From a virus (taxonomy: Duplodnaviria; Caudoviricetes): DNA of 64,000 nucleotides. The stretch lies in IMG/VR virus record IMGVR_UViG_3300042291_001013, one strand, 5' to 3'. This document shows, one piece after another, positions 31,754-48,478 of this stretch (positions are counted from its first letter, which is position 1; each line of letters begins with the position of its first letter). The translations under genes and the position numbers were made by a program. Under the pieces are notes generated by a model, which saw nothing but the letters and a program-made list of their open reading frames with translations, had not been told where the DNA came from and did not search any database.

Positions 31754-32701
31754 TTATTTGACTTTTTCGGTAAGTTTGACCCACGTTTTTCCATCGCTAA
31801 TAGCTTGCTGAGCAAAGTTCTTAGGGGTAGGGGCGTTTGGGTCAACTAACCCACGTTGCACTAGCTCATCCACAGACTGTTCGTATGCAAGTGCAACATC
31901 TTCTCTAAGAGTTTTAAGAATTGCAGGCGGGGTTTTTGCTGGTGCAAAAATAGCATAGTTGGTGTGAATATTTGGGAACTGTCTCAGACCCAGTCCAACC
32001 ATGGTTGGGGTATCAGGCAGACTTGGTACCCTACGATCACCTACCACTGCAATTGGTATTAACGTTCCGGCCTTGATGTGTTGTATAACCTGTGCTGGTG
32101 GTGCAAAAATCATGTCAAGATTACCGGCCACTACGTCCAACACAGCAGGCGGAGCAGCCTTGTAAGGTACATGTACGCCCTTGACTCCCAACACATGTAC
32201 AAACCACTCACCATAGATATGGAACGGGCCACCAGTACCAGCACTGCCGTAAGTGAGTCCTTTGTTCTGAGCATATGCCTTGAGCTCCGGCACAGTTTTA
32301 ACATTGAGCTTGGCACTTACTGCCAGTACAAAAGGTGGCGCCGACCCAATGTATGCAACTGGTACCAAGTCAGTTTCCCAATCATAGGGTACCTGATCCA
32401 GTAACACAGATGACGACGCTAAAATATTGGGCTGAGCCGACAATAGCGTGTAGCCATCTGCGTCACTTTTGGCTACAAAATTTGCACCAATGGTTGTTTG
32501 CCCACCAGCTTTGTTTTCAACAATAACCGGTTGCTTCCAGTTAGCTGAAAGCCGTTGGGCTACAATCCTGGCAATAACATCGTTGCCACCTCCGGGTGAT
32601 AGGGGCACAACAATTTTGACTGTTCGATCAGGAAACGCAGTCTGCGCCTGTGCCAATGACACCCCTAGCAGAGCTAGCACAAATAAAATTTTTCTAAACA
32701 T
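31754..32701 (-). CDS. Bug/TctC substrate-binding protein
   Basis: Signal peptide; FPDRTVKIVVPLSPGGGND, ENKAGG, YGSAGTG, HVPYK. Confidence 0.93.
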   Translation of the reverse strand: MFRKILFVLALLGVSLAQAQTAFPDRTVKIVVPLSPGGGNDVIARIVAQRLSANWKQPVIVENKAGGQTTIGANFVAKSDADGYTLLSAQPNILASSSVLLDQVPYDWETDLVPVAYIGSAPPFVLAVSAKLNVKTVPELKAYAQNKGLTYGSAGTGGPFHIYGEWFVHVLGVKGVHVPYKAAPPAVLDVVAGNLDMIFAPPAQVIQHIKAGTLIPIAVVGDRRVPSLPDTPTMVGLGLRQFPNIHTNYAIFAPAKTPPAILKTLREDVALAYEQSVDELVQRGLVDPNAPTPKNFAQQAISDGKTWVKLTEKVK

Positions 32702-32719: not shown

Positions 32720-33325
32720 TTACATTGTAGGACCGTTGCCGTTCCTAAATCCAATCTCACCACCTTCTGCTGTGATACGCTTATAAACGTCTTCCAACAA
32801 GATAGGTGCAAAATCTGTTTGCTCCACGCATACGCAATGGTAACGCACATCAATTTCGTTACTGTACAATACTGTACCAGTTTTGGCATCAACCCCACGT
32901 GCTCTCTTAACACGGCTGGCATGCAAGTGTCCGTGAATGTTCACACCAAAGCGACCAATGCTGGCCTCATGCACAGGAATGTGACTCAAGATCATGCCGT
33001 TCAACACATGATACGCTCGCAACTCACGAAAGTACTCACGGTACTCGTCATCACGAAAAATGTCATGGTTGCCGCGGATCAATACTTTGTCGCCGTTCAA
33101 GCGAGCCAATGTTTTCAAGGCCTTGCGGTTGATAACAACATCACCCAAGTGGTAAATCTTGTCGCCGGGACGAACAGTATCGTTCCATCGACGGATCATT
33201 TCCTCATCCATCTCATCAGGATCATCCCATGGACGCAACTTCACGGTGTCGTCATCAGGATGTGTAAACTTACACACCCCAGCATGACCAAAGTGCGTGT
33301 CACTGACTAAAAATACTGCTGGCAT
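32720..33325 (-). CDS. Calcineurin-like metallophosphoesterase
   Basis: SDTHFGH, HLGD, GNHD, HGHLH. Confidence 0.9.
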   Translation of the reverse strand: MPAVFLVSDTHFGHAGVCKFTHPDDDTVKLRPWDDPDEMDEEMIRRWNDTVRPGDKIYHLGDVVINRKALKTLARLNGDKVLIRGNHDIFRDDEYREYFRELRAYHVLNGMILSHIPVHEASIGRFGVNIHGHLHASRVKRARGVDAKTGTVLYSNEIDVRYHCVCVEQTDFAPILLEDVYKRITAEGGEIGFRNGNGPTM

Positions 33326-33326
33326 A

Positions 33327-33800
33327 TTATTCTCCTACTATCCAAATTTCTTTAAAACCTTCATCTAACGATGGGGGTTCAAAACCTGTAATCATCTTTT
33401 CCATCACATCTGCTGGAATGTTCTTACCAGGGCGATTTGCCAATCTACGTACCAACTCTTGTGGCCCAGGCACTTTGAATACCACAGCAATGTGTTCGTA
33501 TTGTGAAGGCAACAGTGTGTTAAACTTCTTTTTACGACTTGCTACTGTAGTGCTTGTTTGGTCCCAGATAAAGTCCAAGTTGTTAGCTTGACAAGTCAAC
33601 GCATGGTTCACCATCAAACGAACTGCAATAGGCATGTATTCGTCAAACACTTCACTATATGTTTTACCCTGGCGGTGTGCCTCTATTTCAACATACATAT
33701 CAGTACCAACCACTGGCATACCTAAAGCCCAGATTTGATTTTTAATCCAAGTACTTTTACCCGAGCCCGGGACCCCGATTAATTGATAACACTTGTTCAT
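33327..33800 (-). CDS. P-loop polynucleotide kinase-like protein
   Basis: GVPGSGKST, DQT, RLANR lid; start at 33800 after AAGGAG. Confidence 0.8.
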   Translation of the reverse strand: MNKCYQLIGVPGSGKSTWIKNQIWALGMPVVGTDMYVEIEAHRQGKTYSEVFDEYMPIAVRLMVNHALTCQANNLDFIWDQTSTTVASRKKKFNTLLPSQYEHIAVVFKVPGPQELVRRLANRPGKNIPADVMEKMITGFEPPSLDEGFKEIWIVGE

Positions 33801-34288
33801 ATATCTCCTTCGCGGGCTTTTGGGATCACAAAGCCCCAATCTGTTGTTTCACCATTGATGGTGTGTTTTTCGTCTTCGTCGTAAGTCCAACCCAACACCT
33901 TCATCATCCGGTGCTTGACCAACAAGTTGGGGCTACGGAACGATTCAGTATCCTTGAATCCTAACATCACACCAATCTCACAAACTGCACCTGAACGACA
34001 CACACCTGCATGACAATGCACGATGACATTCATGCGTTGCTCTTGTGCATGTTGCAATAGTCGAACCAGTTCTTGTGCCTGTTCATCTGTGCATTTGCAC
34101 TCGTCAGGGAAAAATTTATCGTCCTGTTCGGCATCCAAGAATTCAAACTGGTGAACTTCGCGGAACTGATACTTGGGTACAGGGAATTCGTATGCAGGAT
34201 CCACAATCTGAATCAGCATGGAATTAACGCCAGGGTCAATATGAAACCCCTGCCGAATGTCACTCATGCTAACGTTTTGAATCCACAT
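33797..34288 (-). CDS. Cysteine (PTP/DSP-like) phosphatase
   Basis: HCHAGVCRS (CX5R). Confidence 0.8.
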   Translation of the reverse strand: MWIQNVSMSDIRQGFHIDPGVNSMLIQIVDPAYEFPVPKYQFREVHQFEFLDAEQDDKFFPDECKCTDEQAQELVRLLQHAQEQRMNVIVHCHAGVCRSGAVCEIGVMLGFKDTESFRSPNLLVKHRMMKVLGWTYDEDEKHTINGETTDWGFVIPKAREGDI

Positions 34289-34343: not shown

Positions 34344-35630
34344 TTAGTATCTATAGGTGTCGGGTTTGTACGGGCCGTCAACTGTGACACCAATATACGC
34401 GGCCTGCTTGAGTGTCATTGCAGTGAGCTCCGCACCAATCTGCTCCAGATGTAGTCGTGCAACTTTTTCATCCAGGTGCTTGGGCAACAGGTACAGTCGA
34501 CCTGTTTCGTATCGACTGGTGTTGGTGTAAAGATCAATTTGTGCCATGACTTGGTTGGTAAAACTGTTACTCATCACAAAGCTGGGATGGCCAGTGCCAC
34601 AACCCAAGTTAACCAGTCTGCCTTCTGCTAGCAAAATAATACGTTTGCCACTGGGGAAAATAACATGGTCCACTTGTGGCTTGATGTTTTCCCACTCACA
34701 GTCCTTGATACCTGCAACATCAATTTCAGTATCAAAGTGACCAATGTTACACACAATAGCATTGTTCTTCATGGCGTCCATGTGTGCGCGAGTGATAACA
34801 TCTACGTTGCCAGTGGCAGTTACAAAGATGTCACACTTGTCTGCCGCGTATTCCATTGTGACCACACGATAACCTTCCATTGCCGCTTGCAGGGCACAGA
34901 TAGGATCTGCTTCTGTAACCCAAACTTGTGCAGAGAGTGCTCGCAGAGCTTGTGCAGAGCCCTTGCCCACGTCTCCATAGCCGGCTACCACTGCAACCTT
35001 ACCGGCAATCATGACGTCAGTGGCACGTTTGATAGCGTCTACAAGACTTTCTCTGCAACCATACAAGTTGTCAAACTTGGTCTTGGTTACAGAATCGTTT
35101 ACATTGATAGCAGGCATCCGCAGTGTGCCAGCCGCAATGCGCTCTAGTAACTTGTGAATACCTGTTGTGGTTTCTTCTGTGACACCTCGGATACCAGGAA
35201 CTAGATCAGGGTGTTTGTCATGGATGTACCCAGTTAAGTCATGTCCATCATCAAGGATCATGTTGGGAGTCCAACCATCTGCACCACGCACAGTCTGCTC
35301 AATGCACCACCAGTATTCCGCTTCTGTTTCGCCCTTCCAAGCAAAAACAGGAATACCTTTTGCAGCCAAAGCAGCCGCGGCTTGGTCTTGTGTGGAGAAG
35401 ATGTTGCAACTACTCCAACGCACACTAGCACCAAGTTCAATTAGTGTTTCGACCAGCACAGCCGTTTGAATGGTCATGTGCAAACTGCCCACAATACGTG
35501 CGCCTGCCAAGGGCTTTGAGCCAGCATACTCACGACGGATTGCCATCAAGCCAGGCATTTCGTGCTCGGCGATAGCAATCTCTTTGCGGCCCCAATCTGC
35601 AAGGCCAATATCTCTAATTTTGTAATCCAT
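34344..35630 (-). CDS. ahcY: Adenosylhomocysteinase (SAH hydrolase)
   Basis: [40 protein letters not shown]; start MDYKI at 35630. Confidence 0.97.
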
Positions 35631-35631
35631 G

Positions 35632-35895
35632 TTACCTCGATTCTTTGTATCTACGTCGCGGTTCGATATCAATTTCTTTGTACAGATAATCTCTAGTGAC
35701 GTGTCCAGCTTCAATTTCCAGCAGTGCTGTTACTGCATGATTGTGCTTGATAGCACTGGCAATTTTTGGCATATCGCCTCGACCCAATTCTCGCATGCGA
35801 CGAGCGCCTACTAGTACCAAATCGTATCTATTTCCAATTGCTTCCACAGCGAGTTCGCTTGTGAGCCCAGCAGTTTCAGGTGTGGTCATATTCAT
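35632..35895 (-). CDS. rpoZ: RNA polymerase omega subunit homolog
   Basis: [30 protein letters not shown]. Confidence 0.75.
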
Positions 35896-41974: not shown

Positions 41975-42004
41975 AAATTTTCAAACACACTGTTTCCAAT
42001 GTGT

Positions 42005-42060
42005 GTATTAAAGCACTCTAAAATACTTAGGCTGCCTGTTCGTAAAGAATGCTTTAATAC
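42005..42060 (-). ncRNA. 15-bp processing-type stem in spacer
   Basis: GTATTAAAGCATTCT pairs with AGAGTGCTTTAATAC. Confidence 0.6.
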
Positions 42061-42156
42061 GCTGTAATTTTTTATCTCACAAAAGAGACTCTATCCTACA
42101 GGCCGCCCATTTGTAGTTTAGAGTGATACCGGCTCTCGTTGCCATTGCACTAAATG

Positions 42157-42185
42157 AAAAACCCTGGAGTGTTTAGTTCCAGGGT
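42157..42185 (-). terminator. Intrinsic terminator of attenuator B
   Basis: ACCCTGGA-9nt-TCCAGGGT followed by TTTT. Confidence 0.85.
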
Positions 42186-42208
42186 CTTGTTGAATTTGTC
42201 AGTTACTT

Positions 42209-42343
42209 TTATGCGTAACCTGCACCTTCAATAGACCCCGACATCCCTAGAATACTATTCACGCGACCAGAGGCGTGTGACCAGGTAAATGTTGCCTGGA
42301 GCATCGCGGGTTTTGTCGACAGTGAACGGAATGTTGTTTTCAT
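42209..42343 (-). CDS. 44-aa leader peptide B (MKTTFRSLST...GAGYA)
   Basis: Promoter and AGGA RBS upstream; stop sits in the loop of the putative antiterminator. Confidence 0.65.
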   Translation of the reverse strand: MKTTFRSLSTKPAMLQATFTWSHASGRVNSILGMSGSIEGAGYA

Positions 42344-42353
42344 CTTAAGTCCT

Positions 42354-42382
42354 ATTGTAGTTTATTTATGATTGTTTGTCAA
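42354..42382 (-). promoter_or_regulatory. Sigma70 promoter TTGACA-17-TACAAT with embedded TAAATA
   Basis: Direct sequence match. Confidence 0.85.
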
Positions 42383-42398
42383 TCACAAATGGTAAAAT

Positions 42399-42491: not shown

Positions 42492-42567
42492 TGGAGTAGG
42501 TGACAGGACTCGAACCTGCATTTTACGGATTTGCAATCCGGCGCCTAACCATTCGGCACACACCTAC
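42492..42567 (-). tRNA. tRNA-Cys(GCA)
   Basis: Loop TTGCAAA; U73. Confidence 0.88.
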
Positions 42568-42577
42568 ACTAATTGAA

Positions 42578-42790
42578 TTTGCAAGTAGTTGCTCCATCGT
42601 TATAGCAACCATTCACCCGTGTAATAAACTCGAGCGGGACTCGGTACGTCACTTGGGATACTAGTCCAGTTTGTCTCCGTTACAGACACCACCCTTGCGA
42701 GTGGTTGGGAGTTGAACCCATCACCTTCTACTGTTTTGGTCCTTCGAAGAAACCTAGACAGCATGACATTCTCTTGCTGACACTTACAAA
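42578..42790 (-). ncRNA. Unassigned ~210-nt structured RNA with a T-arm-like hairpin
   Basis: 10-bp terminal stem TTTGTAAGTG/TACTTGCAAA; TGGG-TTCAACT-CCCA; several internal hairpins. Confidence 0.65.
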
Positions 42791-42793
42791 ACT

Positions 42794-42868
42794 TGGCGAT
42801 GCATGGGAGAATCGAACTCCCGTCTCCGGATAGACAATCCGGGATAATGACCATTATATGAATGCACC
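42794..42868 (-). tRNA. tRNA-Asp(GUC), canonical core
   Basis: Loop TTGTCTA; G73. Confidence 0.9.
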
Positions 42869-42875
42869 TTAAACT

Positions 42876-42950
42876 TGGCGGTCCCAGGGGGTAACGATCC
42901 CCCTCTTCAGCAGTGACAGTGCTGTGTGCGTCCATGAACACCTTGAGACC
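42876..42950 (-). tRNA. tRNA-Asp(GUC), non-canonical core
   Basis: Loop CTGTCAC; A8/U14 and A54/U58. Confidence 0.82.
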
Positions 42951-42957
42951 AATTTTT

Positions 42958-43100
42958 ATAGTTAAGCACCGAGAATGCCAATTTAGGAGTCCGGTGCTTC
43001 TGTTCCAAAGCCGATGCAGTTATATCAGGATCAGTCGCCGGCCGCTGTGACCCGAATAGTGTAAGCGTCCTTACACGATACCTTATCGGTGCTTAACTAT
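42958..43100 (-). ncRNA. Stem-enclosed structured RNA
   Basis: Perfect 15-bp inverted repeat ATAGTTAAGCACCGA; inner GTGTAAG/CTTACAC hairpin. Confidence 0.6.
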
Positions 43101-43110
43101 AAAAACAAAA

Positions 43111-43310
43111 ATGCTCTGCATCCCCCGGCGGTAATTGTAGTACATCAAGATACGACGCTATCGTACCCATCACACGTACCTTCCACCCGCTTCCCGACAG
43201 GGACCGTTATCGCATTGCTAGCGGCCTTTGGGTTCAAAGACTACCACCCGTAGCTGTCACGCTACTTCTCATCGTGTGGGTCACACTATCCGGAGACACC
43301 CGGAACGTTC
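43111..43310 (-). ncRNA. Candidate GC-rich structured RNA directly after tRNA-Tyr
   Basis: Hairpins TCCGG/CCGGA, GTAGC/GCTAC, CTTTG/CAAAG, TACGA/TCGTA; no plausible ORF. Confidence 0.5.
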
Positions 43311-43397: not shown

Positions 43398-43405
43398 AAA
43401 AAAGG

Positions 43406-43468
43406 GAGAGCTACGGTTGCAGGACCTAGTGCCTCTTGCGAGGGAAGTATCCAGGCGATGTAGCTCTC
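43406..43468 (-). ncRNA. 63-nt rod-like spacer RNA
   Basis: GAGAGCTAC/GTAGCTCTC, CCTGG/CTAGG, CCTC-GCAA-GAGG. Confidence 0.5.
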
Positions 43469-43472
43469 AAAC

Positions 43473-43553: not shown

Positions 43554-43813
43554 CACTATATGAAAACACATTAGGATGTTTGATAGAAGTAACAGTTTTG
43601 AACCTGCCCTACTGTGTCGTCCACAGATTTGTCTATCAACCACATTACGGGCCAACTAGATCCGGCGCGCTTCGCTCTTTCGAGTCTGCTTTCGTGTAGT
43701 CCAAGTAGAGCCTAGCCGTCACTAGGATTTAGTTCTCTACTTGGGTACCTACCGGAGTTGGTAACCCAATGCGTTTACATATAGTGCCCAGAACTGAATC
43801 TGGGTACACTATA
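43554..43813 (-). ncRNA. Unassigned ~230-260-nt multi-helix RNA
   Basis: 18/19-bp closing stem; 10-bp CCAAGTAGAG helix; GAAA tetraloop; T-loop-like GTTCAAAA. Confidence 0.7.
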
Positions 43814-43881: not shown

Positions 43882-43910
43882 AGTATAACATCTTGTGCTA
43901 TTCTGGTCAA
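43882..43910 (-). promoter_or_regulatory. Sigma70 promoter TTGACC-17-TATACT
   Basis: Direct match upstream of the ncRNA/tRNA block. Confidence 0.8.
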
Positions 43911-44162: not shown

Positions 44163-44191
44163 ATTATATATGACAGCAGACAAAAAGTCTA
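44163..44191 (-). promoter_or_regulatory. Sigma70 promoter TAGACT-17-TATAAT
   Basis: Direct match; predicted +1 at the A of the leader ATG. Confidence 0.75.
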
Positions 44192-44204
44192 CTGTTTTGG
44201 TAAA

Positions 44205-44545
44205 ATTGGATAGGTTTATTCTGTTACGAGGAAAACCTATCAAAACCCTAGGCAGTGTTTAGGCTGCCAATGCGAACTGTTCGTCGTTTGCGTTTACGTT
44301 TTTTGCTTCTACGACCGGGAAACCCCAACCCTACGGCTTTCACATTGCCGAGCTGTCCACTCTGTTACTCTTTGCCCTGTCGAAACCATGGCAGGCCCAT
44401 TATAAAACATACTCAAACGGGTCTTTTCGCCTATCCCCGTGCCGTGGCTTGCAAGGATAGGGCTGAATATGCTTTATGGTGGACCTGGCGGGAGTCGAAC
44501 CCGCGTCCAGAACACTTTTCTCTTTGCTTCATACAGCAATAACCT
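44205..44545 (-). ncRNA. ssrA: Circularly permuted (two-piece) tmRNA, tag ANDEQFALAA
   Basis: Acceptor piece ending GGTTCGACTCCCGCCAGGTCCACCA (44477) precedes the 5' piece GGGCCTG (44398); G3-U70; tag at 44259-44291. Confidence 0.95.
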
Positions 44546-44547
44546 AT

Positions 44548-44576
44548 ATTATATTAGGCTTTCTGAATTTTGTCAA
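44548..44576 (-). promoter_or_regulatory. Consensus promoter TTGACA-17-TATAAT for tmRNA
   Basis: Perfect consensus. Confidence 0.9.
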
Positions 44577-45498
44577 CCAAACCGGCACTGAATGTGTTGG
44601 CAAATTGATCATATACTTTGGCAGTTACCTTGCGAAAAGTTTGCTCATCAGCATCGCTAAATTTAATAACACGAATGCCATCTTGCTCACAACGTGCCTT
44701 GGTAGGCTCAACTTCGGCCACAGCCACAGCACGCTCAAAACGTCCAGCTTCTAATGCCGCATCTTTCATGACCTGTTGCAGGTCTGCAGACAAGCCAGCC
44801 AAGAAGTTCTTGTTCACAATGATGTTAGTCAACAACAAGCGATGGTTGGGTTCCAAGATAGATTCAGCAACTTCGTTTTGTTGGCAAGCATAGATACGTG
44901 GCCATGAGCTTTCGCCGCCATCAATAGCACCATCTCGGATGCCTTCGGCCACACGTTCAACGTCCATCACAACTGGATCAGCGCCCAGGGCAGTCCATGT
45001 AGCGGCTGCAACTGGTGAATTTGACACACGCACTTTAACGCCGGCCATTTCACTTAGACTTGCAACGTCACGATTCATGGGCATGTTCATAAAGCCACCT
45101 GAGTAGGTAAATGCCATGCCTTTGATGTTGCTGTTCTTGGCGTAACCATCCAGCAAACTCTCGCCAATTTCACTTTCAAACACACGTGCCGCGTGATCGT
45201 GATCACGGAACAAGAAAGGCAAATCAAGTGCGTCAAGATCATTGTTGTACTTGCTGAGTACATAAGTGTACATCTGGCTCATTTCAATAGCGCCAGTGTC
45301 CATAACATCCAACAGGTTATGTTTGGTGATTGGTTCACCATGATTGTACTTGCTGGTATACTCGCTTAGAGTCAGCACTTCAATCTCAAACTGTCCTGGT
45401 GCACGGGCTTCTACTACTTCAGTAAATTTTTCAGCGGCACGAATAAAAATGTCAATAGGTTCATGGGCTAATACCCATTTGATGTGGATAGGTTTCAT
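44554..45498 (-). CDS. TRAP transporter substrate-binding protein (DctP family), no visible signal peptide
   Basis: LDLPFLFRD, GVKVRV, LGADPV, IDGGE; start may be 45528. Confidence 0.85.
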   Translation of the reverse strand: MKPIHIKWVLAHEPIDIFIRAAEKFTEVVEARAPGQFEIEVLTLSEYTSKYNHGEPITKHNLLDVMDTGAIEMSQMYTYVLSKYNNDLDALDLPFLFRDHDHAARVFESEIGESLLDGYAKNSNIKGMAFTYSGGFMNMPMNRDVASLSEMAGVKVRVSNSPVAAATWTALGADPVVMDVERVAEGIRDGAIDGGESSWPRIYACQQNEVAESILEPNHRLLLTNIIVNKNFLAGLSADLQQVMKDAALEAGRFERAVAVAEVEPTKARCEQDGIRVIKFSDADEQTFRKVTAKVYDQFANTFSAGLVDKIQKA

Positions 45499-45683
45499 AA
45501 TATTTTTTCCTTGAGTAATAGCTTGCATGTGTATGCTACGGTGGGCGTTCTAGGTATTGTGCTAGTAAAGGGCATTGCCCAAGCGTCCATTATTTCCGAC
45601 GTCAGCCCCTGCTGGCGTTGCTAGAATTATTTAGCTTTTGCAAGCGTCTTGTATAGCATTTTTAAGGCATTAGTGCGCAATTG

Positions 45684-46868
45684 TTAAAATTTAAAATGAT
45701 TGTTGATACCTGAGCTTTCAAAGTCAGCTTCGCCCAGGTAATAAAAGGGTGATAAAAACCCCACAAAGCCAACTGCTTGCCCCATTTCTCTGTTGAAGTA
45801 CTTGCTGTCAATAGTTTTTACTAGATGTGCAAGACCCGCTTGCCATTTGGCATACTGTGCAGTTTCTTTAAAGTTGGTATAAAACCAATGATCCATCTCG
45901 TTGTAAAAACTGTTGGTTGGTTTACTGGTCTGGAATGTTTCTTGATTGTACTGTGGGTAGATTAACGGCTTGATCAAGTGCTCGTATGTTGTTCGATGGG
46001 TGTAGCTGTAGTTTGGCCAACGGCACACATACTGCATGTGTTTGTTGTGCTCTAGCATAAACCAGTTCTTGACCATGTGGCATTGTTTGATAAACATCTC
46101 TGGCAAGTCAGGCGTCCAATAAAAATATTCGTTGGTCATGTTGGTATAATCACCAAAATCACCCATGCTATGATTGGCCATAACATCAATAAAGTAAGCG
46201 TACCACTTTTTGTCCTTGATGCATAGCTTGGGCTTGTCTACCCCGTACAAGATGCAAATGCGTTGACCAGTGTCTGCTAGCTTTTTGTGACCTACATAGC
46301 CTGTAGCTGAGTGCTTGAACGCATGTCCAGGTTGGAAATAATCTTTAGTTTTCATAACCCAAGATTCATCATACACTTGAGTTAACATGTTTTCACTGTA
46401 GTCGTGCATGGTAATTTTTGTGCGAGGTGAAGCAGTGGTCAACCAGTTCAGCACAGGATATGCCGCATAACGTGCTTCGCTTAGAGTGTTCTCAGGTTTG
46501 CAGTTAAACGGATCGTCGCTAACATCTTTCTCACCAGTCTTGGGATATCGAAAAACAACCTCATCAAGGTGTATTCCGTTGTTGATAAAGCTATACAATG
46601 CTGTAGTCGAATCTCCCCCACCAGAAAATTCTAAACGAATGTAATCGTACTTGTCCCGTAATTGTTGCGCACGAATTCGATACAGGTCTAGGATATTGAT
46701 ATTGGGTTCAACTAGCCAATTTTCGGCACCAAATATTTCGTTGCTGAAATTCCATTCGGGAAACTGATTGGTTTCTGTTGCCTTGGTCAGTGCCATGGGC
46801 TTGCTAAAAAACTTTTCAGTTCCTACAGTGTAGTACCCCAACTTGGGGTTTTGTTCAATCTTGATCAT
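45684..46868 (-). CDS. PP-loop (adenine nucleotide alpha hydrolase-like) protein
   Basis: DKYDYIRLEFSGGGDS. Confidence 0.6.
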   Translation of the reverse strand: MIKIEQNPKLGYYTVGTEKFFSKPMALTKATETNQFPEWNFSNEIFGAENWLVEPNINILDLYRIRAQQLRDKYDYIRLEFSGGGDSTTALYSFINNGIHLDEVVFRYPKTGEKDVSDDPFNCKPENTLSEARYAAYPVLNWLTTASPRTKITMHDYSENMLTQVYDESWVMKTKDYFQPGHAFKHSATGYVGHKKLADTGQRICILYGVDKPKLCIKDKKWYAYFIDVMANHSMGDFGDYTNMTNEYFYWTPDLPEMFIKQCHMVKNWFMLEHNKHMQYVCRWPNYSYTHRTTYEHLIKPLIYPQYNQETFQTSKPTNSFYNEMDHWFYTNFKETAQYAKWQAGLAHLVKTIDSKYFNREMGQAVGFVGFLSPFYYLGEADFESSGINNHFKF

Positions 46869-48478
46869 TGTGAGGTTCCAAAAAAGTTGTTGTACCAGTT
46901 GTTGGCTGACTGTGCATGCTTGGCTTGTATTTTATTTTTGCTGTTAAAGTAGTCAAAAAAGTTTATGGCCAGTTGTTCAGTTTCGTTGTCAATGTCTATT
47001 TGCCAGGGCAGATCTATGCCATAGTACATGGCCATGTTTGCTAAAGGACCTTGATACCAAAAGTGCTGAAGTTTATCATTATAGTGTCGTCTTGATTCAG
47101 ACACAACAGTGTCCTGCAGCCATTCCTTGATGCAAAGCTCTTGACCAACAGAATTCATCAATTGCCAGTATGGAGTATCGTTTTTTGGCGCTAGATACAT
47201 ACCAACTTGAATACGTTTCAGCACGTCATTATTGATGTTGTTAACAAACTGATTGTACGAATCTTTCCAGTCAAACGTTCGATCATGATCCTGCTTGATG
47301 TAATCAACCAATTGATTAATAAAAGCCAACTGAGTTGAAAATCCATTGGCGTCATATACGTCAGTAAACCCGCTGGAGATACCCAGCGTCACACAATTAG
47401 CCACAAATGTTTGTTCAAAGAATCCGGCCTGCCAAGATATTTTTCTTTTGATTGCACCCTTCATCCACGGGAACCGCTGATCAAACTCGTCAATCAACTG
47501 CTGTTCATCAGTAGTAAAGTTTTTGTTGTACACATAACCATTGCCACTGCGCCCTGGTTGTGGCAGACCAAACACCCATCCTTGACTCATGGCATAATGT
47601 CTGGACACACAATCTGATGGATTTTCTAGATCATGACGATTTGGTCCCTGCCCAACTATTGCGGCATTGTTAATAGTATCTTCAACCGGACGCCAACGAA
47701 ACGGTACAAACTGCGAAAACAATCTCTTGAACCCGGTACAGTCAACAAACAGATCTGCATGCACCTGTGAATCGTCTTCACCTACTAGGTGAGTAACTCT
47801 GGTCCCATCAAACACCACATTCTTAATTCGCAGAGCTTGAACTTTGACTCCGCAAGGAATGCCCACGCTTTCGTGAATTACGTCTTTGACATAATCAGCA
47901 TTGAAATGAAAACTTGAAACCAATCGCTTCTGTGGCAGATGCTGTTTGTTCATGATTGTTTTGTAATAGCTATACCAATAGCTTTCGCTTAGGTCGCCAG
48001 CCCTGTTTTCATTTTTACGCAGTCCTTTGTTGTATAGGTGTAACCATACGTCCCACAATGTGTATTTGTCATCTTCGGCACCCGATGCTGGACCCAGAGG
48101 TTTTGTTCTATGCCCATAGGTGTCTGTTATAGATTGTGTAATTATCTTGGCACTAGGATTCCACTGGAATCCAGAGACCATGGGTGTCTCGGTGCCATCA
48201 AATCCAAAAAATGCCACACCATACTTGTAGCTAGAATTTGATTTTTTCATCCAGTCATAAGAGCTCTCGTCATCAATGCCAAACAGTTTGCGCATAACAT
48301 CACGACAGTTAAACGCAATGCTTTCTCCGACACCGATGTAAGGAGTGTTGGGATCATGTACAATAGTCACATCAGTTCCTGGACAATTTCTTTTTATGGC
48401 GGCGGCTGCAAAATATCCAGCGGCTCCGGCGCCCACAATCACAACTTTGAGTGGCTTGGCTTCAGCATTTTTTATCAT
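46865..48478 (-). CDS. Flavin-dependent tryptophan-halogenase family protein
   Basis: VGAGAAG, IGVGES, FVDCTGF, GWVFGLP (WxWxIP-like). Confidence 0.8.
   Translation of the reverse strand: MIKNAEAKPLKVVIVGAGAAGYFAAAAIKRNCPGTDVTIVHDPNTPYIGVGESIAFNCRDVMRKLFGIDDESSYDWMKKSNSSYKYGVAFFGFDGTETPMVSGFQWNPSAKIITQSITDTYGHRTKPLGPASGAEDDKYTLWDVWLHLYNKGLRKNENRAGDLSESYWYSYYKTIMNKQHLPQKRLVSSFHFNADYVKDVIHESVGIPCGVKVQALRIKNVVFDGTRVTHLVGEDDSQVHADLFVDCTGFKRLFSQFVPFRWRPVEDTINNAAIVGQGPNRHDLENPSDCVSRHYAMSQGWVFGLPQPGRSGNGYVYNKNFTTDEQQLIDEFDQRFPWMKGAIKRKISWQAGFFEQTFVANCVTLGISSGFTDVYDANGFSTQLAFINQLVDYIKQDHDRTFDWKDSYNQFVNNINNDVLKRIQVGMYLAPKNDTPYWQLMNSVGQELCIKEWLQDTVVSESRRHYNDKLQHFWYQGPLANMAMYYGIDLPWQIDIDNETEQLAINFFDYFNSKNKIQAKHAQSANNWYNNFFGTSQ

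Follow-up and report, generated by a model that had tools for sequence, protein, structure and literature searches.

The RNAs GOLLD, ROOL and OLE form homo-oligomers (PMC12286853), and the palindrome-switching loops of OLE and GOLLD were shown to form intermolecular bridges (PMC12286853). manA (RF01745), an RNA of about 200 nt found in phages, self-assembles by way of kissing loops (bioRxiv 10.64898/2026.07.01.735769). The RNA YrlA carries a permuted tRNA-like region in which the T-arm is followed by a closed acceptor stem and then by the D-arm (PMC4201824). Here we report a structured RNA of a phage that combines these two known kinds and represents an undescribed family. It lies in 64,000 nt of phage DNA (IMG/VR record IMGVR_UViG_3300042291_001013), the whole of which is called the window below. 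Rfam matched nothing over the element in the window (at the gathering threshold and then down to E 10) or at 17 homolog loci (down to E 1), and the GOLLD, ROOL, OLE and manA covariance models gave no match over it. No description of the family was found in the literature; it may be listed among the 10,000 viral candidate RNAs of PMC10690425.

The window carries 29 tRNA genes (detected by ARAGORN) and a permuted tmRNA of betaproteobacterial type (44171-44590), all on the minus strand, and because of the tmRNA type we take the phage host to be a freshwater betaproteobacterium. Phages as large as 364 kb are among the closest relatives of the window, chosen by a neighboring protein. The structured RNA occupies the gap between tRNA-Asp and tRNA-Cys of this array (Table 1). 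Its minus strand folds modestly better than shuffles (z -2.06), whereas the plus strand is on a par with them (z 0.03). The motifs quoted by the first-pass annotation, which gave no strand, are all present, on the minus strand. A sigma-70-like site could drive the part of the array that contains the structured RNA. The adjoining tRNA-Asp(GUC) has U at position 37, an unusual base 3' of the anticodon, and a second tRNA-Asp lies after it at 42876-42950.

Table 1 Coordinates of the structured RNA, its parts and its neighbors (positions in the window unless a locus is named)
Feature	Position	Strand	Remarks
Structured RNA, whole gene	42578-42790	minus	213 nt; homologs and covariation
tRNA-Asp(GUC)	42794-42868	minus	Upstream; CCA end 3 nt before the structured RNA
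tRNA-Cys	42492-42567	minus	Downstream; starts 10 nt past the structured RNA
Sigma-70-like promoter candidate	43882-43910	minus	10/12 match plus TG extension; consensus match only
P1 closing stem, 5' strand	42782-42790	minus	96.9% paired at the inner four pairs; two-sided changes at two of them
P1 closing stem, 3' strand	42578-42586	minus	Pair counts in 48 homologs
P2 5' strand, conserved GCAA internal-loop strand and loop-E-like GAA	42768-42781	minus	
P3 5' strand, bulged A	42763-42767	minus	GUC/GAC, GAC/GUC, AUC/GAU and AAC/GUU variants
P4 long hairpin	42731-42761	minus	Two-sided changes at 8/8 counted pairs
Palindrome 1 (CUUCGAAG), P4 tip	42742-42749	minus	Candidate intermolecular bridge
P5 5' strand, anticodon-stem place	42723-42725	minus	Partner 42668-42670; 91.7% paired, one pair covaries
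T-arm, 4 bp and UUCAACU loop	42706-42720	minus	Mutual information and pair counts
Acceptor-like 7-bp helix, GNRA cap, no CCA	42688-42705	minus	Absent in short variants
D-like arm	42673-42687	minus	Loop GG at 42677-42678
3' strands of P5, P3, loop E (AGUA), CCAAG internal loop and P2	42648-42670	minus	
Pseudoknot strand CC	42643-42644	minus	Pairs with GG at 42594-42595; 100% paired (48 homologs)
Palindrome 2 (CUCGAG), P7 loop	42629-42634	minus	Candidate kissing-loop bridge
P7 hairpin, large loop	42616-42638	minus	97.9% paired, two pairs covary
P8 hairpin (GTTGCT/AGCAAC)	42588-42609	minus	99.6% paired, 4/5 pairs covary
Paralogous RNAs with different 5' arm	L478:975-1163, L458:2950-3124, L418:3225-3401		

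Pattern scans, the metagenome part of which covered contigs >1 kb, returned at least 285 loci and at least 227 distinct sequences, and hence the element is conserved in related phages. Among the matches listed, a tRNA lay within 1.5 kb in 226 of the 227 distinct homologs and 186 sat flush against a tRNA. Scored with the family's own model the window copy gave 244.7 bits and was the single copy within 36-54 kb; near-complete carriers likewise have one copy each. The carriers are jumbo phages of ~350 kb, T4-like phages of ~160 kb and one 124-kb phage without gp23, and the capsid proteins of the ~350-kb and ~160-kb T4-like carrier lineages are 30-35% identical. Presence is patchy in that 15 of 47 arrays picked by a neighboring gene have the structured RNA within the DNA fetched. 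T4-type RNA ligase is unlinked to carriage (0/14 near-complete carriers). Two variants searched by BLAST against 50,697 phage records gave no real match in cultured phages. A pattern scan of 185,579 prokaryote genomes (GTDB) gave four true matches, all on MAG contigs with tRNA genes that are probably misbinned phage DNA; two further matches were due to chance.

The fold was derived from mutual information (122 sequences) together with pair counts (48 diverse sequences) and is close to certain. In the 48 homologs 97.8% of the cells are paired, with two-sided (compensatory) changes at 27 of the 48 pairs of the comparative fold. This level of pairing was reached by none of 500 shuffles, and slid controls gave 31-45%. 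From the 5' end the RNA proceeds through P1, P2, a GCAA/CCAAG internal loop, a GAA/AGUA element that we read as a putative loop-E-like motif, P3 with a bulged A, P4 and P5, which are followed by the T-arm, the acceptor-like helix, the D-like arm and a 3' domain composed of P7, P8 and a CC/GG pseudoknot. A P2 pair occurs as C-G (146), U-A (59) and U-G (21) among the 227 listed homologs, and the pseudoknot as CC/GG (176), UC/GA (20) and CG/CG (2). Conservation of AGCAAG was partly built into the search patterns.

The closing stem of the first-pass annotation was borne out as nine pairs plus a G-U, with G13 more likely belonging to the next helix, as was its GTTGCT/AGCAAC hairpin. The TGTCT/AGACA hairpin is real but was misplaced, being the D-like arm in the middle of the RNA rather than part of the 3' half. 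Its CAGCA/TGCTG hairpin and GGT/ACC extension of the T-arm must be discarded, as they are 69.5% paired in the 48 homologs and 496 of 500 shuffles did as well, although the single-sequence MFE structure draws that hairpin. The TAACG common to two loops is a coincidence of the window copy, being found in 9 of 92 D-like loops. The capped acceptor-like helix, the two palindromic loops, the loop-E-like motif and the pseudoknot had gone unremarked.

Judged from sequence, the T-arm, the tetraloop-capped acceptor-like helix and the GG-bearing D-like arm are a circularly permuted tRNA-like module. The T-arm suggested earlier is a 4-bp stem with a 7-nt loop, the outer pair being C-G in 25 and U-A in 20 of the 48 sequences, and the stem is 4 bp in 195 of 219 homologs. 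Counts for the acceptor-like and D-like helices were made sequence by sequence, outside the 48-sequence alignment: the acceptor-like helix is of 6-8 bp in 89 of 92 homologs and has a GNRA cap in 67 of 92 and a CCA in 0 of 92. The GG of the D-like loop accompanies UUC T-loops in 146 of 146 long variants. When T-loop position 55 is U, GG is kept in the D-like region of 134/134 distinct domains, and when it is G, in 7/17, although in these counts the cases are related by descent and are not phylogenetically independent. As T-loop and GG change in this coupled fashion, we infer that the T-loop docks on the GG of the D-like loop. A C56-G19 to U56-A19 compensatory change in the short variants is not claimed, as the alignment there is ambiguous.

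The module departs from tRNA in several ways. The U8-A9 connector is 0 nt in 62 of 92 homologs, up to a third of members (the short variants) lack the acceptor-like helix and about 15% have non-tRNA T-loop sequences. Given the 4-bp T-stem and the missing connector, the tRNA mimicry is therefore loose. P5 takes the position of the anticodon stem but leads into the main part of the structure, and thus there is no anticodon loop; the other hallmarks of tRNA and tmRNA, a free acceptor end with CCA and a tag frame, were also not found in the structured RNA. The first-pass annotation was right that anticodon loop and CCA are both absent, and its tRNA-like elbow is better supported than it had argued, owing to the YrlA arm order and the GG/UUC coupling, but the mimic is a loose one. 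The permuted (two-piece) tmRNA precursor also has its T-arm before a closed acceptor stem and D-loop; the structured RNA differs from it in lacking CCA and a tag reading frame.

The resemblance to YrlA (RF02553; PMC4201824) lies in the permuted order of T, closed acceptor and D on a long stem and in the lack of both an anticodon loop and an encoded CCA. However, YrlA is about 110 nt and the present RNA 213 nt, with a 4-bp rather than 5-bp T-stem, no U8/A9 connector and a loose D-arm, and with the P4 hairpin, the pseudoknotted 3' domain and the two palindromic loops as extra parts. Of the conserved tRNA core nucleotides in the D-arm of YrlA (U8 and the A14 region) only the GG is kept. The first-pass annotation had called the RNA Y-RNA-like and proposed a covariance-model comparison with YrlA and a search for Ro60. 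The YrlA model did not match the element in the window (E 10), at 17 homolog loci (E 1) or in five genomes that contained other scoring RNAs. The Ro-binding motif GNCGAAN0-1G occurs in 0 of 227 listed homologs and no TROVE gene was found in 28 carrier records. Hence, the RNA is not a YrlA member and is Y-RNA-like in topology only.

A TROVE search alone is misleading, and DUF2828 (PF11443) needed a separate search plus folding. The DUF2828 structure model matches Ro60 structures in its top 13 hits, and the protein is thus predicted to fold as a Ro60 ring. The gene is present in 6 of 28 carrier records, 2-13 kb downstream on the same strand, and thus most carriers lack a linked Ro60, unlike YrlA, for which a Ro60 gene is expected on the same strand at a distance of up to about 4 kb. 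The link is not obligatory because DUF2828 is present in only 4 of 14 near-complete carriers, was not found in the window and occurs without the structured RNA in two genomes (G030 and G041). Moreover, DUF2828 loci have RNAs of their own with an AGGAT..ACAGCAA..ATCCTG handle (60/80 loci versus 3/77 control loci), none of which was found in the window. These Y-like RNAs (L539:1480-1590, L540:1480-1620 and L541:1480-1620; handle loci L379-L458) include some with classical T, acceptor and D modules that score 29-33 bits on YrlA, under the Rfam cut-off. They occur in the same phage groups and arrays as the structured RNA, share the T-acceptor-D order in some cases and have the letters CAGCAA on the 5' strand in common with it, but they carry the AGGAT/ATCCTG handle and a canonical D-arm and track the DUF2828 gene, which the structured RNA does not. 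Given the common letters, there is a small chance that a Ro-type ring also binds the structured RNA.

A distant Y RNA, in which a DUF2828 or host Rsr ring would bind the YAGCAAG strand and the tRNA-like domain would recruit an effector such as PNPase, is therefore a reading to be weighed, and we consider it unlikely. The arm order of YrlA, the location of the conserved 5' strand at the place of the YrlA Ro site, the six letters that this strand shares with ACAGCAA and the position and Ro60-type fold of DUF2828 where present all agree with it. Against it stand the missing Ro motif and TROVE genes, the loose association with DUF2828 and the separate handle RNAs, some of classical YrlA form; in addition, the first bases of the YAGCAAG motif are paired in P2 and covary. 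What the family offers instead is the permuted tRNA module of Y RNAs used without Ro60.

Neither palindrome belonged to any search pattern. Of the 202 sequences parsed, 200 have a 6-nt palindrome at the start of the P7 loop, with ten hexamers represented, whereas shuffled P7 loops gave palindromes in 24.5 on average and 40 at most. The mutual information values of this palindrome are 1.10, 0.88 and 0.93, and its center switches between CG, GC and UA, always complementary. As adjacent central bases cannot pair within one chain, the P7 palindrome points to intermolecular pairing; the same palindrome-switch argument supported the bridges later seen in OLE and GOLLD (PMC12286853). A covarying Y-U-N-R follows directly (42625-42628). 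A palindrome also sits at the P4 tip in 225 of 227 listed homologs, but through four hexamers of which one is dominant (UUCGAA 217, UGGCCA 6, UGCGCA 1, UCUAGA 1), with an outer pair that is C-G in 37 and G-C in 11 of the 48 aligned sequences. It is thus the weaker case for self-pairing, and the near-invariant hexamer could alternatively cap the hairpin, either as an ordinary loop or as one of T-loop type. Duplexes of the P7 hexamers have predicted energies of -7 to -12 kcal/mol and those of the P4 octamers about -9 kcal/mol; trees, built on short alignments, give roughly 44-86 palindrome switches. Because the loops stay palindromic while their sequence changes, RNA-RNA self-assembly is suggested, and copies of the RNA probably pair with each other through these loops. 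Two self-complementary loops would allow a dimer with two bridges, a ring or a filament.

In these respects the RNA resembles GOLLD (RF02032) and ROOL as a phage RNA of tRNA arrays and resembles GOLLD and OLE in loops that covary between palindromes. It differs from all three in being far shorter and unrelated in sequence and fold, and its assembly is predicted. GOLLD is a separate gene within about 0.1-1.2 kb in 5 of 14 near-complete carriers (G001, G002, G003, G010 and G032); DUF2828 is absent from all five, although the numbers are small. With manA it shares a length of about 200 nt, a phage setting and kissing loops, known in manA and predicted here. However, manA bridges join different loops, whereas each loop of the structured RNA is self-complementary, and manA was described as a putative 5' leader element, whereas the structured RNA sits between tRNAs.

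The RNA also appears to be built of exchangeable parts. In 17 members the same 5' arm is joined to one of two other 3' domains, both of which also contain palindromes, and three loci have paralogs in which the same P1 and palindromic, pseudoknotted 3' domain are combined with a different 5' arm. The comparison indicates that the pseudoknotted 3' domain is swappable.

A working model follows from these features. Its position suggests that the RNA would be transcribed together with the tRNA array and cut free as the flanking tRNAs mature. P1 and the pseudoknotted 3' domain form the base, and the long arm ends in the permuted tRNA corner, in which the T-loop would dock on the D-like loop GG. Conservation of the palindromes suggests that each self-complementary loop would pair with the same loop of another copy, to give a homodimer or, via two separate two-fold bridges, a ring or cage. 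The most likely role of such a product would be to present tRNA-like corners in a stable, multivalent form and thereby to bind or sequester host readers of T-loops or elbows during infection. For this explanation as a whole, an array-borne, self-pairing RNA that displays tRNA corners to host factors, the case for and the case against seem to us evenly balanced, and the decoy role taken alone could equally be right or wrong. Doubtful is a bolder version in which a modular RNA, through its two independent palindromic bridges, would form a closed ring or cage of RNA alone that bears many tRNA corners. This would serve as a multivalent sponge for host enzymes that cleave or sense T-loops, with arm and assembly modules exchanged among members and paralogs. 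Defense nucleases that cut the T-loop exist (Cash; PMC13462974), and T-loop cutters of this type or other elbow readers fit better as targets than do anticodon nucleases. As the RNA is only 213 nt long, occurs in hundreds of natural variants and combines a recognizable tRNA module with two predicted symmetric bridges, assembly and mimicry should be separately breakable and restorable, and thus the tRNA-decoy idea for RNAs of the GOLLD/ROOL type becomes directly testable. The RNA is also a compact natural building block for RNA nanostructures.

The main rival of the display model is an assembly of the GOLLD, ROOL or manA kind in which the T-loop/D-loop contact is an internal clamp that is not read as tRNA and the RNA stores, shields or scaffolds something else. 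This is possible, if clearly the less probable reading, as the acceptor-like helix is dispensable, the T-loop can be replaced by other sequences of T-loop fold, the paralogs have another 5' arm but retain P1 together with the palindromic 3' domain, and GOLLD lies nearby in a third or so of the near-complete carriers as given above. However, most members keep the UUCRA loop and the GG, along with a helix of 6-8 bp that stacks in the manner of tRNA, which exceeds the needs of a clamp. The decoy proposed in the first-pass annotation would instead titrate anticodon nucleases. PrrC and colicin tRNases act at the anticodon arm. AriB also acts there and requires the anticodon loop to be positioned above the cut site (PMC12409363). 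As this arm is absent, the equivalent helix P5 running into the RNA body, titration of PrrC, AriB or colicin-type tRNases is highly improbable despite the location in a tRNA array and a model of AriB in which the D-loop is contacted too (PMC12409363).

A ribozyme or processing element that matures the tRNA array, such as a minimal RNase P-like or self-cleaving RNA, would account for a compact pseudoknotted domain with conserved internal loops lying flush with tRNAs, and by eye short motifs loosely resemble RNase P conserved regions and loop A of the hairpin ribozyme. This seems very unlikely, since no Rfam ribozyme matched in the window or at 17 homolog loci, the CR-I-like stretch forms covarying local pairs in P3 rather than P4 (CR-I/CR-V), the NGUC of the hairpin ribozyme is missing and the 3' domain is replaceable; moreover, the neighboring tRNAs vary between phages and many related arrays lack the structured RNA. 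Likenesses to RNase P, group I introns, twister and the hairpin ribozyme were dropped because the matching stretches pair otherwise. Least credible is a DNA-level element whose palindromes would be protein or methylase sites, with an incidental RNA fold. The hexamers are typical of restriction-type sites, yet that of P7 varies and stays palindromic, and the G-U pairs, the pseudoknot, the strand bias and the T-loop features are characteristic of RNA.

Other parts of the array and its surroundings merit mention. Five more unannotated minus-strand spacers (43110-43305, 42955-43112, 43555-43800, 43400-43470 and 41980-42165) are conserved in 10-43 fetched loci with apparent stem variation, and Rfam matches none of them. 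On the same strand 42150-42395, conserved in 26 loci, has a promoter match (42382-42354), a short open frame and a U-run hairpin before the next tRNA block, and resembles an attenuator-type leader. Just downstream of the array (32720-34288, minus strand) metallophosphoesterase, AAA_33 kinase and dual-specificity phosphatase genes lie in a row reminiscent of RNA end-healing functions. Host-like metabolic genes are found around the array (34344-35714, 31754-32701, 44554-45528 and 46865-48478); they encode S-adenosylhomocysteine hydrolase, a TctC receptor, a probable TRAP-type binding protein (by eye) and a member of the tryptophan-halogenase family.
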